Positions 11,069 through 14,932 of a DNA stretch of 64,000 bases are shown piece by piece. The stretch is from sequence record PX994957.1, one strand, 5' to 3'. Each line of letters begins with the position of its first letter. The stretch's first letter is position 1. The position numbers were made by a program, and so were the translations under genes. Under the pieces are notes generated by a model. The model saw only the letters and a program-made list of their open reading frames with translations, was not told the origin of the DNA and ran no database searches. This DNA comes from a phage.

Positions 11069-11494
11069 TTATTCCTTAAAGTGTGCTTTCAACATCTGAT
11101 ACAAAGACCATGCCTGTTCATTATTTTCAATAGTAACTTTCATGACCGGGAATTCTGTGAAATCTTCTATTTGTTCTTGCTCTTTCTCTTCCTGCTCTTG
11201 CTCTTCAGCTGCCTGGTATGGATTTTCCACTTCATCAAAGAACACAGCTTCACTCGTTGAAAGCCAGATAAAATCTTCATCCAAAATATCTTTACCAGAA
11301 GATAACGCCAATTTTCCACTAGATGTCACAAGTTTAGTAGGACGACCAAGATAGTCAATATCTGTAACTCTAAAAGGTTCCATACCAAGACGTCGTGCAT
11401 AAATTCCGTTTTCAGTATGGTCCTTGATAAAATCTTCTTGAGCTTGTTTATTTTTAAATTGATACCATTTATTAACTTCAAATTTAATAGCCAT
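11069..11494 (-). CDS. goF: GoF-like protein
   Basis: 141 aa from ATG 11494 (SD GGAAGGAAAC), equal to T4 goF length as recalled; position between 39.x ORFs and cef. Confidence 0.6.
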
Positions 11495-11709
11495 TAATAA
11501 GTTTCCTTCCAATAAGTTGTACCATCTTCAGTAATTTCGCGAAACACACCATAAATTGGTTGTTTATCACCAACTTTTTCGTACACATAAACCGAAGTCA
11601 AGTGAGTAAACTTATTAGTATGTTCCTTTTGAACTACTACAAGATTTGGATCAAATAATACATCTTCAAATTCGTCATTAGTGCAATTCTGAACAATTTT
11701 ACGTTTCAT
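11494..11709 (-). CDS. cef: Cef-like protein
   Basis: 71 aa, equal to T4 cef length as recalled; stop overlaps goF start (ATGA). Confidence 0.55.
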
Positions 11710-11722
11710 TACAATTTCCTCA

Positions 11723-11992
11723 TTAATTGAACAGTGGAGCGATGCGTTTCAGAAGAGTAGCAGCACCTTTAGCGAATTTTACATCATGAAAAACAGTTTC
11801 TTCTTCCGTTACAACACGAGCTTTAATGTTTTCACAATCCCAATTTTTGCGAACAATCTTCAAAAGCTGCAGTAAATCTTTACATTCAGCAATATCGATA
11901 ACACATCCACGAGAATCTTCCATTATTGCACGATAACCGTAAGCCATACCATAATCGTTGAAAGATTGCTCGATGATAATTAAGTTTTCCAT
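11723..11992 (-). CDS. hypothetical protein
   Basis: 89 aa from ATG 11992 with SD GGAGAATAAA; track start is TTG in promoter leader. Confidence 0.55.
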   Translation of the reverse strand: MENLIIIEQSFNDYGMAYGYRAIMEDSRGCVIDIAECKDLLQLLKIVRKNWDCENIKARVVTEEETVFHDVKFAKGAATLLKRIAPLFN

Positions 11993-12034
11993 TTTATTCT
12001 CCAAGTTATTTTCTGTATCAGTAGTTGATATTGA

Positions 12035-12064
12035 TATAGTACCATAATCAACTACTGATGTATA
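12035..12064 (-). promoter_or_regulatory. early promoter variant inside a 12-bp inverted repeat
   Basis: TACTAT -10 (12035-12040) with weak -35 ATATACA; arms TCAGTAGTTGAT / ATCAACTACTGA flank the -10. Confidence 0.35.
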
Positions 12065-12088
12065 TAGTTTTATGAAAAAATTTAAACT

Positions 12089-12586
12089 TTATGCACAGCG
12101 AGCTTTGCTATAGTGTTTAATCCAGCTTTCAGGAATGACTTTGTATGTTCCTAAAAATACCGCGTTGTACAGCTTAACACCGTCTTCTACCCACTGATCG
12201 GTAATGTATGCGCACATAGCACGAGTACGGTGTTTTTGAACAACCCCTTCCTCATCTTCAGTAAATTCGAATTCATAAGGAGCAACGAACTTAATAGCCT
12301 GACCGAGTTTCCACTTAAAGTATACACCTACATGCGAAGTATCAATCGTTTCAATTCCTTTAGCAGGAACAGCTTTCAAAAACGCAGATTCAAGAAATTT
12401 CGCACGAACATAGCCAAACTGAGGTTTAGACTTTCCATCTTTAGGAATGATACGCACTTTTACTTCAGAATCTTCATCTTTAACGCCGTGTTTAAGCTGA
12501 ATGCTTACAATTTCGACCAATTTTCCTGCTGCTTTAGAACGGGATTTATCAGATACACGAGCAATTTCACCAATATTAATAATCAT
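12089..12586 (-). CDS. motB: MotB-like protein
   Basis: 165 aa (T4 MotB about 162 aa); position between cef and dexA; shares C-terminal DQW(V/I)EDGV motif with next ORF. Confidence 0.6.
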   Translation of the reverse strand: MIINIGEIARVSDKSRSKAAGKLVEIVSIQLKHGVKDEDSEVKVRIIPKDGKSKPQFGYVRAKFLESAFLKAVPAKGIETIDTSHVGVYFKWKLGQAIKFVAPYEFEFTEDEEGVVQKHRTRAMCAYITDQWVEDGVKLYNAVFLGTYKVIPESWIKHYSKARCA

Positions 12587-12630
12587 AGTTATCTCTCACT
12601 TGTTAAAAAGATTTTATACTCCACAGGACC

Positions 12631-12660
12631 ATTATACTCTGGTCCCAAGAGTTTGTAAAC
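12631..12660 (-). promoter_or_regulatory. T-even early promoter upstream of motB
   Basis: GTTTAC (12655-12660), 18-nt spacer, TATAAT (12631-12636); -10 bracketed by GGACC/GGTCC inverted repeat. Confidence 0.55.
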
Positions 12661-12662
12661 TA

Positions 12663-13202
12663 TTAATTCAAAATAGCTACCACTGCACTACGAGGTACTA
12701 CGCTAAAATCACCTGCATGAACAACGTTCAGAAGTTCAACACCATCTTCAATCCATTGGTCTGTTACCCAACCACAGACCGAAATAAATGGAGTCTTGAT
12801 AGCTACCGCACGAGTTAAAAGGTCAGTAGGATCGCATTCTTGAAAGAGGATGAACTCTGCTTCAAAGACTATAGTTTTAATTACTTCATCATTATCTAAG
12901 CGATGTGCTCGAATCACGTAAGCTTTATTTTTATCATACCAGTTACTTTTTGAAAAGCTTTTAACCACAAACTCACCTTCACCAAAAACACTAGTCAATG
13001 CTTTATAACCCAAATTTAGTTCAGTTGTTTTAATTTCAGTTTCAACTAGTTTGTAGGTTTTGCCGATTTCAATAGCGGTAGTCATAGTAGGTTCCTTAAT
13101 TTCCAGTGGTTTAACAGGGCATACATAAGTGCTTACAACATCAAAATCAATCAGTTTAGCTACCGGATTTGGTATGTATTCAGGATTATAATTAAATTTC
13201 AT
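12663..13202 (-). CDS. MotB paralog
   Basis: 179 aa; C-terminus VTDQWIEDGVELLNVVHAGDFSVVP parallels motB ITDQWVEDGVKLYNAVFLGTYKVIP. Confidence 0.55.
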   Translation of the reverse strand: MKFNYNPEYIPNPVAKLIDFDVVSTYVCPVKPLEIKEPTMTTAIEIGKTYKLVETEIKTTELNLGYKALTSVFGEGEFVVKSFSKSNWYDKNKAYVIRAHRLDNDEVIKTIVFEAEFILFQECDPTDLLTRAVAIKTPFISVCGWVTDQWIEDGVELLNVVHAGDFSVVPRSAVVAILN

Positions 13203-13204
13203 AA

Positions 13205-13705
13205 TTATCTCATTTCAATAAAATCTACAAGTTCAGCATGGGATTTACGGAACATTACTTGATGCCCACCAATAATAACTTGGTCATCTGGTACTTCGTA
13301 TACAGCAAGATAAAATCCTTTCGAAGATAATTCTTCACGCTCTTCTCGTGTGAACCATCTCATCATATCATATTCGCTAGCAAAAGCAAAATGATAAAGA
13401 GCTATAAACCATCCGGGAATATGATATTCTACTCCAACATAATCTTTCTTGAACTTAGTATTAATTACGATATTAGCATTTTTAACTAATAGTTTATCTT
13501 CGTGTGGTAAAGGAATTCTTTTATTATTATCGCTATGATGCATAAAATTAGGTCTGTCATAACCTACGTGTAATAGCCACTCTTCGCTCCATGAATCTAT
13601 TATACTCCTGTACGGCGTTATTTGAACACAAAGATTTCGACGTATTGTTATAGCATCTTCATAATCAAGAATACTAAACGATGATTCAACACGATAAATT
13701 TTCAT
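13205..13705 (-). CDS. hypothetical protein (motB.x-type)
   Basis: 166 aa from ATG 13705 with SD GAGGATAATAAA; track N-terminus is promoter read-through. Confidence 0.55.
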   Translation of the reverse strand: MKIYRVESSFSILDYEDAITIRRNLCVQITPYRSIIDSWSEEWLLHVGYDRPNFMHHSDNNKRIPLPHEDKLLVKNANIVINTKFKKDYVGVEYHIPGWFIALYHFAFASEYDMMRWFTREEREELSSKGFYLAVYEVPDDQVIIGGHQVMFRKSHAELVDFIEMR

Positions 13706-13732
13706 TTTATTATCCTCAGTAGCTATGGTGTT

Positions 13733-13762
13733 ATAATACCACAACTAACCGAGGAAGTAAAC
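13733..13762 (-). promoter_or_regulatory. T-even early promoter
   Basis: GTTTAC (13757-13762), 18-nt spacer, TATTAT (13733-13738). Confidence 0.5.
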
Positions 13763-13768
13763 AACTTT

Positions 13769-14452
13769 TTATCGTTTTGTTGGAAGAGATAGAGGATCGC
13801 ATTCTTCCTCTGATGGAGCGTCTTCAAGACCCATAGCATACCGCAAAGCATACTTCATCATCAGGATGTCTTTCGCACAGTCATGAATAGAATCATGTGC
13901 AACGAATCCATCTAAAGTTCCCTTTGGAAGAGGACAAGTGGTCATATCACGAACAAGTAGAAGTGCTTCAATTCTGGTACGAATATCACGCTGATTCCAG
14001 AATTTACACGGTTCTAACTTAAATGTATCAAGCTCATTCTCGGAAACGCCATTAAGACGTTGAATATCACGAATGAGATCGACTAAAATTGGAAAATCAA
14101 ACGACATTCCACGGCACCAACCCTGAGATTTCCAAGGATCGATATTATGCGCATTGATGTAATCATTGAATTTTGCAATACCATCAATAGTGCTTACATC
14201 TTCATCTGACGGTGCAATATTTTTTCGAGCTTCAGGGGATTGATTCTTCCACCATTCGATAGTGCTTTTAGTAAAAAGACGATGTCCTTTTTGGCTTTTT
14301 AAATCAAATTTGATTTTAATGCCACGTGAAACTAATTCATCGAATGTTTCAACGACTTCTGGATTAGGGTCAAAAGCAATTACAGCTAAATCAATAACAG
14401 CTGCCTTTTCGCCGCTTCCCATTGTTTCAAAATCTATAATAAAATCAAACAT
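13769..14452 (-). CDS. dexA: DexA exonuclease A (DEDDh 3'-5' exonuclease)
   Basis: 227 aa, equal to T4 DexA; FIIDFETMG and HDSIHD motifs; SD AAGGAAAAT. Confidence 0.88.
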   Translation of the reverse strand: MFDFIIDFETMGSGEKAAVIDLAVIAFDPNPEVVETFDELVSRGIKIKFDLKSQKGHRLFTKSTIEWWKNQSPEARKNIAPSDEDVSTIDGIAKFNDYINAHNIDPWKSQGWCRGMSFDFPILVDLIRDIQRLNGVSENELDTFKLEPCKFWNQRDIRTRIEALLLVRDMTTCPLPKGTLDGFVAHDSIHDCAKDILMMKYALRYAMGLEDAPSEEECDPLSLPTKR

Positions 14453-14694
14453 TAAATTTTCCTTGCTAAATCGCGAATTTGACCTACAGTATAGTCTTGA
14501 ATATAAACTTTATTAATAGGCTCATCAATAAATTTTGCAATAGATTCAATGTCTTTTTGTATCTCTTCAAGACTGTATACTATCTTTGAAGCTTTTTCGC
14601 GAATAGTAATATTTTCAGGACCCGGATTTTCTTCAATGACAGCTTTAACATTTGTCATAAGAGATTTAAACTGACACCAACTTAATTCAATCAT
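14452..14694 (-). CDS. hypothetical protein (dexA.1-type)
   Basis: 80 aa; ATG 14694. Confidence 0.5.
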   Translation of the reverse strand: MIELSWCQFKSLMTNVKAVIEENPGPENITIREKASKIVYSLEEIQKDIESIAKFIDEPINKVYIQDYTVGQIRDLARKI

Positions 14695-14932
14695 TAATAA
14701 TCGCCTTATAAAGATAGCTAATTTCGCCTAAAATATAATCATTGATTGTAACAGTTTTCACTTCACCACAAAAGAATTCTAACGCAATTAAATCTCGTTC
14801 AATTTCTTCTAATTGAAGCCTCAACTTACTAGATTCTATTTTTACAGTTTCACGATTTTTGCTATAAGCAATTTCATAAATTTCGCTTACTTTATCTTGA
14901 AGAAGATAAAACTGATCTTTAGTTATTTCCAC
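14687..14932 (-). CDS. hypothetical protein (dexA.2-type), GTG start
   Basis: 81 aa from GTG 14932 preceded by SD GAGGAAG; no in-frame ATG near 5' end. Confidence 0.45.
   Translation of the reverse strand: MEITKDQFYLLQDKVSEIYEIAYSKNRETVKIESSKLRLQLEEIERDLIALEFFCGEVKTVTINDYILGEISYLYKAIIND

Follow-up and report, generated by a model that had tools for sequence, protein, structure and literature searches.

Sequence comparison identifies MotB and MotB.1 of a T4-like phage as tandem partial paralogs with a shared C-terminal domain and unrelated N-terminal domains

The window, meaning the whole 64-kb stretch of phage DNA analyzed here (PX994957.1), includes a 3.5-kb segment that on comparison has 100% identity to Escherichia phage vB_EcoM-G157lw and ∼95% identity to hundreds of Tequatrovirus genomes; judged by its sequence, the source is a T4-like phage (Tequatrovirus). 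The locus contains the early-gene block usual in such phages, dexA-motB.2-motB.1-motB-cef-goF, carried on the minus strand in the order found in T4: dexA, motB.2, motB.1, motB, an ORF of 93 aa that T4 does not have, cef, and goF. The genes and the putative promoter are as follows.

13769-14452, minus strand: dexA
13205..13705, minus strand: motB.2 (ORF; T4 annotation; phrog_1106)
12663..13202, minus strand: motB.1 coding sequence, 179 aa (ORF; phrog_2333 over its full length, E 1.5e-82; slot between motB.2 and motB as in T4)
12631..12659, minus strand: putative sigma-70/T4-early-type promoter, TTTACA-17-TATAAT (11/12 matches, the best in 11400-14700)
12089..12586, minus strand: motB coding sequence, 165 aa, orthologue of T4 MotB (PF17613, E 9.9e-98; phrog_1671, E 1.5e-75; position of T4 motB)
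11723-12004, minus strand: 93-aa ORF between motB and cef, without a T4 counterpart
11069-11512: goF, within the window

The putative promoter lies in the 76-nt gap between the motB.1 stop codon and the motB start codon, a gap in which one base differs from T4, downstream of the -10 hexamer. The initial annotation had credited the second gene of the pair with a promoter of its own, and this has to be withdrawn: the strong site is downstream of motB.1 and upstream of motB, and the promoter thus belongs to motB. We infer from its sequence that the 12659..12631 site drives motB. The motB.1 start has no comparable promoter of its own; its start codon follows the motB.2 stop codon by 2 nt, so motB.1 and motB.2 are probably co-transcribed. 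One candidate for a motB.1 promoter, ATGAGA-17-TATAAT at 13213..13185, was rejected because its -10 element falls within the ORF and cannot serve a start at 13202. A weaker site, TTTACT-17-TATTAT with an upstream TG, is found at 13761..13733, upstream of motB.2. The number of promoter-like sites in 11400-14700 (14) is close to that expected from shuffled sequence (13.5), and only the 11/12 site deserves weight. A perfect 13-bp hairpin is located 3' of motB, and a terminator scan of 11400-14700 detected no intrinsic terminators.

Alignment with T4 MotB and motB.1, proposed as a check when the two ORFs were first described, matches each ORF to its T4 counterpart by profile and by locus. The 165-aa ORF is MotB, as had been claimed: the match to Pfam family PF17613 (motB) spans the whole protein, aligning residues 1-163 to profile positions 1-160 of 162, and scores 325 bits where the cut-off is 25; both phrog_1671 and synteny with T4 motB agree. 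It is a basic two-domain protein (pI 9.2, net charge +6), in which AlphaFold2 (AF2) modeling and pI together point to a KOW-like N-terminal domain and a C-terminal barrel, with most of the positive charge carried by the KOW-like domain (pI 9.75, net charge +5), whose KOW assignment has been published (PMC7827196). The regions of MotB, all on the minus strand, are:

12383..12586, minus strand: N-terminal KOW-like beta-barrel, residues 1-68, basic (AF2 strands 8-11, 23-30, 41-46, 56-61, 65-67)
12320..12382, minus strand: inter-domain linker, residues 69-89 (pLDDT <50 at 70-86; indels in the family)
12092..12319, minus strand: C-terminal barrel, residues 90-165 (pLDDT 84-95; strands 97-112, 115-134, 137-144, 147-152, 156-160)
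12113..12223, minus strand: core shared with MotB.1, residues 122-158, RAMCAYITDQWVEDGVKLYNAVFLGTYKVIPESWIKH (hhalign; BLASTP)

The length of the linker varies through large insertions and deletions across the family alignment A1. MotB of the window resembles T4 MotB in locus, full-length profile match, two-barrel layout, basic pI, and upstream promoter sequence, and it is ∼88% identical to the 162-aa T4-type MotB (P0128 in alignment A1); it differs in being three residues longer, owing to a small insertion in its C-terminal hairpin (EDEEGVVQKHRTR versus DDGRVVYTR). T4 MotB is an early protein toxic to E. coli that binds DNA non-specifically, co-purifies with H-NS/StpA, and alters H-NS footprints (PMC6070864, PMC7827196). 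By homology with T4 MotB, the window protein would likewise be a toxic, non-specific DNA-binding nucleoid-associated protein that alters H-NS binding. Interference with H-NS silencing is a theme that MotB has in common with T7 gp5.5, T4 Arn, and LUZ24 gp4, although these are unrelated to MotB in sequence and mechanism, gp5.5 and gp4 binding the silencer protein and Arn mimicking DNA. The H-NS theme is that of MotB; nothing ties MotB.1 to H-NS.

The neighboring ORF of 179 aa is the motB.1 gene, as had been supposed, matching phrog_2333 from end to end and occupying the T4 slot directly upstream of motB. The protein is acidic (pI 4.9, net charge -7), and its length is common, the 197 homologous database clusters being mostly of a 177-183-aa form. 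Its regions are:

13080..13202, minus strand: N-terminal extension, residues 1-41 (predicted disorder: pLDDT <50 at 1-5 and 10-41)
13104..13148, minus strand: short linear motif DFDVVSTYVCPVKPL, residues 19-33 (family pattern D-x-D-[VI]-x-S-[MT]-Y...P)
12834..13079, minus strand: middle domain, residues 42-123 (homologous to the LSm-like N-terminal domain of T4 MotB.1)
12666..12833, minus strand: C-terminal barrel, residues 124-179 (AF2 strands 132-136, 141-152, 155-162, 165-170, 174-176)
12675..12785, minus strand: core shared with MotB, residues 140-176, ISVCGWVTDQWIEDGVELLNVVHAGDFSVVPRSAVVA (hhalign; acidic, pI 4.1)

Residues 111-179 are 68% identical to intact T4 MotB.1, and this identity together with alignment A2 places the MotB.1-type C-terminal core (DPTDLL...CGWVTDQWIEDGVELLNVVHAG) in the 179-aa ORF. 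The middle domain has no similarity to T4 MotB.1 by BLASTP alone, yet it matches the profile of the T4-type N-terminal domain in hhalign (94.8%, E 5.4e-8, 72 columns), and the T4 protein (P39415) is also found by fold with Foldseek (E 1.3e-5, TM 0.57). Since its middle domain matches T4 MotB.1 by both profile and fold, the 179-aa protein is, on sequence and model comparison, a true MotB.1 whose N-terminal domain has diverged and which carries a 41-residue extension. In gene slot, PHROG (phrog_2333), and fold of the N-terminal domain it agrees with T4 MotB.1 (P39415; intact 143-aa T4T protein ADJ39729.1); it differs in the 41-residue extension with its D-x-D-V-x-S-x-Y motif and in an LSm-like domain that has diverged beyond the reach of BLASTP. 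By description it would fit 'Category 4' (different N-terminal motif) of Patterson-West 2021. The extension is predicted to be disordered yet is conserved, with many invariant columns in alignment A2, and of 26 cluster representatives checked, 9 have the D-x-D motif, either N-terminally or within the linker, in proteins with differing architectures. An internal start at Met40, which gives the 140-aa form of some records (P0110), was considered but rejected as the principal form, given the strong conservation of residues 1-39 in protein sequence.

The N-terminal domain of T4 MotB.1 has been described as LSm-like and as fold kin of GoF and Frd.2 (Kim et al. 2025, PMC12152347), and the middle domain of the window MotB.1 is homologous to this T4 member of the GoF/Frd.2/MotB.1 LSm-like family. 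An hhalign comparison of the middle domain with GoF of the window indicates no relation (probability 0.5%); the kinship of MotB.1 with GoF is structural only and comes from PMC12152347. Amber and deletion mutants of T4 motB.1 have no plating, burst-size, or latent-period phenotype, and a reporter is unaffected by MotB.1 (PMC12152347). The earlier suggestion that MotB.1 may be aimed at a different host factor is a plausible conjecture.

The observation that started this analysis, a DQW(I/V)EDGV module common to the C-termini of MotB and its neighbor, is real by BLASTP, Pfam, PHROG, and hhalign. The ORF coordinates and strand and the two quoted peptides are also correct, except that the peptides had been given as the ORF ends: MotB runs a further 11 residues (WIKHYSKARCA) and the 179-aa ORF a further 7 (AVVAILN). 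In BLASTP the two proteins align with 16 of 32 residues identical, 24 of 32 positive, and 0 gaps (E 5e-11). PF17613 matches residues 141-174 of the 179-aa ORF at 34.3 bits, above its cut-off of 25, and the PHROG MotB profile matches residues 124-177 (E 1.5e-16). When family profiles built from 30 MotB and 22 MotB.1 sequences are compared with hhalign, MotB 122-158 aligns to MotB.1 140-176 over 37 columns (probability 98%, E 2.5e-13), and outside these core columns the two profiles yield no alignment. The conserved core pattern is (T/S)DQW(I/V)EDG(V)(E/K)L(L/Y)N(V/I)V...V(V/I)P. Searching the six-frame translation of the 64-kb window with the module profile returns exactly two copies, those in MotB and MotB.1.

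The description of the neighbor as a divergent second copy of MotB is therefore right for its C-terminal module and wrong for the protein as a whole, as only ∼37-55 C-terminal residues are homologous. The 179-aa ORF is not a full MotB paralog: a KOW-like basic N-terminal domain is lacking, and the Pfam match is confined to 141-174. By sequence comparison, motB and motB.1 are tandem partial paralogs having one homologous C-terminal domain and unrelated N-terminal domains. The shared C-terminal domain is correct but already known, having been published for T4 in 2021 (PMC7827196): Patterson-West et al. reported a conserved MotB/MotB.1 C-terminal domain with differing N-terminal domains and suggested duplication (PMC7827196), and divided 102 homologues among four categories, one of them having 'another distinct NTD motif' (PMC7827196).

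AF2 models of both proteins were computed from the family alignments, and register was judged from strand positions. The MotB model (pLDDT 79) comprises a barrel at 1-67 and an all-beta domain at 90-165, separated by a disordered linker at 70-86. The MotB.1 model is of moderate confidence (pLDDT 68), with residues 1-41 disordered, an alpha/beta region at 44-123, and then the C-terminal barrel. Different predicted folds for the two C-terminal regions, the outcome named at the outset as telling against the proposal, are not what the models contain: each region is predicted as a beta-barrel, and the strands are in register, with the last four of MotB and MotB.1 coinciding at an 18-residue offset. 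The C-terminal barrel of MotB has an extra long hairpin (∼97-121) where MotB.1 has one short strand.

PDB sequence searches with MotB, MotB.1, and the module profile returned only unrelated proteins, the best at E 0.5-1. In Foldseek searches of the PDB, the two models retrieve the same top classes, tandem Tudor domains (53BP1, UHRF1) and the KOW domains of Spt5 (DSIF); Agenet and SAWADEE domains are found in addition with the MotB model. These matches, obtained with whole two-domain models as queries, are weak (E 1e-3 to 4e-2, TM 0.2-0.4). The strand count and the top Foldseek classes fit a five-stranded SH3-like barrel, at E values of 1e-3 or weaker and TM ≤0.4. The models thus suggest that the shared domain is a small SH3-like beta-barrel of the Tudor/KOW structural class, as a statement of fold class only. 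Tandem Tudor, Agenet, SAWADEE, and Spt5 KOW repeats (53BP1, UHRF1, DSIF) also consist of two consecutive small SH3-like barrels, a resemblance that with weak E values, low TM, and 8-18% sequence identity is one of fold class only.

A search of 1.84 billion representative proteins with the module profile yields matches in only 29 clusters (50% identity). Among the weakest are three long proteins (601-862 aa, P0262-P0264), which were judged spurious; P0262, the one of them inspected by sequence, is a repeat protein with short 'GYATEQWVE.KGYL' repeats. In all remaining clusters the module is C-terminal, preceded by N-terminal regions of five or more kinds: a KOW-like domain, combined with either the enlarged barrel (MotB type) or a plain MotB.1-type barrel, a T4-type LSm-like domain, the domain of the window type, a middle domain present in duplicate (251 aa), and an additional N-terminal domain (246 aa). 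In tblastn, 768 phage records match the KOW plus plain-barrel protein P0248, almost all of them enterobacterial T4-like phages; from these sequence searches the module appears almost wholly restricted to T4-like phages. The core has a net charge of 0 to -5 in 22/22 cluster representatives examined, and most family members are acidic, including those that bear a KOW domain.

A Kanagawavirus (Klebsiella phage) carries a single KOW plus plain-barrel gene at the syntenic site, between a dexA neighbor and cef. An ancestral single gene encoding a KOW domain, a linker motif, and a plain barrel may have been kept in Klebsiella T4-like phages and duplicated in tandem in the lineage of the motB pair, a scenario based on one outgroup locus, and one copy would then have swapped its N-terminal domain. 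No repeat between the two module copies was found at the DNA level, so the duplication is old and there is no sign of recent gene conversion.

The explanation that best accounts for these data, to which we assign a probability of about 0.85 as a whole, is that MotB and MotB.1 are partial paralogs sharing an SH3-like C-terminal barrel and having unrelated N-terminal domains, with the duplication described above and a scaffold role for the barrel. In the models, MotB begins with a basic barrel of the KOW-like type, followed by a flexible linker and by a C-terminal barrel that an extra beta-hairpin makes larger; MotB.1 consists of a disordered 41-residue extension with a conserved motif, an LSm-like domain, and a plain C-terminal barrel. 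The shared core would more likely be a common protein-contact or self-association scaffold than a DNA-binding surface, because no other segment is as well conserved, the residues invariant within it are polar or acidic, the core is never basic, and the positive charge of MotB is concentrated in the KOW-like domain, net charge being a crude argument against DNA binding. The N-terminal domain would probably set the ligand: DNA in the case of MotB and another ligand, perhaps RNA or a protein, in that of MotB.1. That the core is never basic and the family mostly acidic argues for the KOW-like domain as the source of DNA binding by T4 MotB and for a different role of the common domain.

The strongest competitor, which we consider unlikely, is that the shared domain is an OB-fold binder of nucleic acid, such that MotB and MotB.1 both bind DNA or RNA and MotB.1 is a second nucleoid-binding protein. 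HHpred has assigned the MotB C-terminal domain to the cold-shock/OB-fold DNA-binding family, with a match to eIF5A (PMC7827196); MotB binds DNA tightly (PMC6070864), and an all-beta barrel in the AF2 models is in keeping with such a fold. The charge distribution speaks against this proposal, as MotB.1 has a pI of 4.9 and its core a pI of 4.1, the core is net basic in none of the 22 representatives, and the basic charge of MotB lies mainly in its KOW-like N-terminal domain. In addition, none of the top 50 Foldseek PDB matches for either whole model, weakly scored as these are, is an OB-fold protein; Tudor/KOW SH3-like barrels are retrieved instead.

It is quite unlikely, in our estimate, that the module is specifically an association domain through which the proteins form homo- or hetero-oligomers, with acidic MotB.1 tuning or antagonizing the compaction of DNA by MotB. 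In both proteins the module is the best-conserved segment, it is always C-terminal, motB and motB.1 are adjacent and co-occur in many genomes, the two proteins are oppositely charged, and multivalency is needed to bridge or compact DNA, all of which such a role would accommodate. Klebsiella-type phages, however, carry one module gene only, and deletion of T4 motB.1 has no burst or latent-period phenotype (PMC12152347), although the motB phenotype is itself only about two-fold. The remaining alternative, that the resemblance is a short chance or convergent motif rather than a homologous domain, can draw on the restriction of profile-detectable similarity to ∼37 residues and on upstream regions (MotB 90-121 versus MotB.1 124-139) unlike in length and sequence, but is already effectively refuted by E values of 5e-11 to 2.5e-13 with a Pfam match over the curated cut-off, by the presence of the core across all family clusters, by predicted strands in register in the two proteins, and by known intermediates in which a MotB.1-type C-terminal barrel follows a KOW N-terminal domain.

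The preferred reading, partial paralogs with a common barrel scaffold, leaves room for a more specific and speculative proposal that we regard as improbable: that the barrel's TDQW(I/V)EDG...LN(V/I)V face, which is invariant and acidic, is a docking or association surface used family-wide, through which MotB.1 modulates MotB or delivers its LSm-like domain. If this were true, MotB.1 and the numerous acidic KOW-type relatives would be brought to the partner or site of MotB, or would bind MotB itself. MotB.1 would then be a modulator of MotB-driven nucleoid compaction or would bring an LSm-like (RNA-binding?) domain there, with the conserved disordered D-x-D-V-x-S-M-Y peptide as a further element for binding partners. 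The value of the observation is modest and practical, in that a phage-restricted domain is joined to several N-terminal domains in early host-takeover genes. Were the docking proposal true, the published tests of T4 MotB.1, which used the 119-aa ORF, would have missed that function.

This 119-aa ORF is that of the reference T4 sequence (AF158101.6 = NC_000866.4), which has an extra G in motB.1 (ATTGGAAGATGG versus ATTGAAGATGG). The extra base ends the reference protein at 119 aa (…DQWIGRWR), inside the shared domain, with 28 further codons open in the next frame, and the resulting MotB.1 is without the last three strands of the C-terminal barrel. Because a one-base insertion cuts the reference ORF within the shared domain, constructs derived from the 119-aa T4 ORF may have tested an incomplete MotB.1. 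The extra base is absent from all 13 other records of T4 or near-identical phages. Strain 147 has an open 143-aa motB.1 frame that is unannotated in its record, and T4T and MT984581 annotate a motB.1 coding sequence of 432 nt (143 aa).

The T4 reference genome (NC_000866.4, handle L002) carries a one-base insertion in motB.1, an extra G after ...CAATGGATT. The position of this insertion and of the other features described here is as follows, in window coordinates unless stated otherwise:

L002 2292–2340, equivalent to window 12740–12760, minus strand: insertion in T4 motB.1
13190–13185: −10-like TATAAT inside the 5′ end of the motB.1 ORF
13104–13148, minus strand: conserved short linear motif DFDVVSTYVCPVKPL of MotB.1
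13085: internal ATG (codon 40, Met40) of motB.1, preceded by AAGGA
12017–12059, minus strand: perfect 13-bp inverted repeat, ATCAGTAGTTGAT ... ATCAACTACTGAT
11723–12004, minus strand: 93-aa ORF (phrog_3720) between cef and motB

The extra G cuts the T4 reference MotB.1 to 119 aa, with the break falling inside the C-terminal domain shared with MotB, and the T4 MotB.1 of published work (13.8 kDa) is this truncated ORF. The insertion is absent from 13 other records (T4, T4T, RB55, RB59); a 143-aa motB.1 CDS is annotated in T4T and MT984581, and in strain 147 the frame is likewise open for 143 aa. A different change is found in P0261, a 43-aa database protein retrieved with the representative search, in which the first 17 residues of MotB.2 (MKIYRVESSFSILDYED) are fused to the last 27 of MotB.1 (GVELLNVV...AILN), corresponding in the window to motB.2 codons 1–17 and motB.1 codons 153–179. 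P0261 is a natural deletion variant from which most of motB.2 and motB.1 has gone, the junction apparently lying at an ...ED motif common to both.

The short motif of window MotB.1 sits within a predicted-disordered stretch and follows the family pattern D-x-D-[VI]-x-S-[MT]-Y...P. KOW-type relatives carry the same motif in the linkers between their domains, and in another architecture it follows the LSm-like domain; such a distribution would suit a mobile peptide that binds a partner. A shorter MotB.1 isoform without this N-terminal motif is conceivable; a 140-aa form starting from Met40 is annotated in some database records (P0110).

Outside Tequatrovirus, members of the MotB family are mostly acidic (pI 4.4–6), including those with the KOW-like domain, and thus the strongly basic, DNA-coating nature of T4 MotB may be peculiar to its lineage and not typical of the family.

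The inverted repeat lies 30 nt past the motB stop codon, and the 96-nt RNA segment containing it has a folding energy of −20.8 kcal/mol (z −3.9 versus shuffles). Lacking a T-run, this hairpin does not qualify as a canonical intrinsic terminator; a role in RNA processing or stability is possible. Where the window has the 93-aa ORF, T4 has nothing but ∼170 nt of non-coding sequence separating cef from motB.
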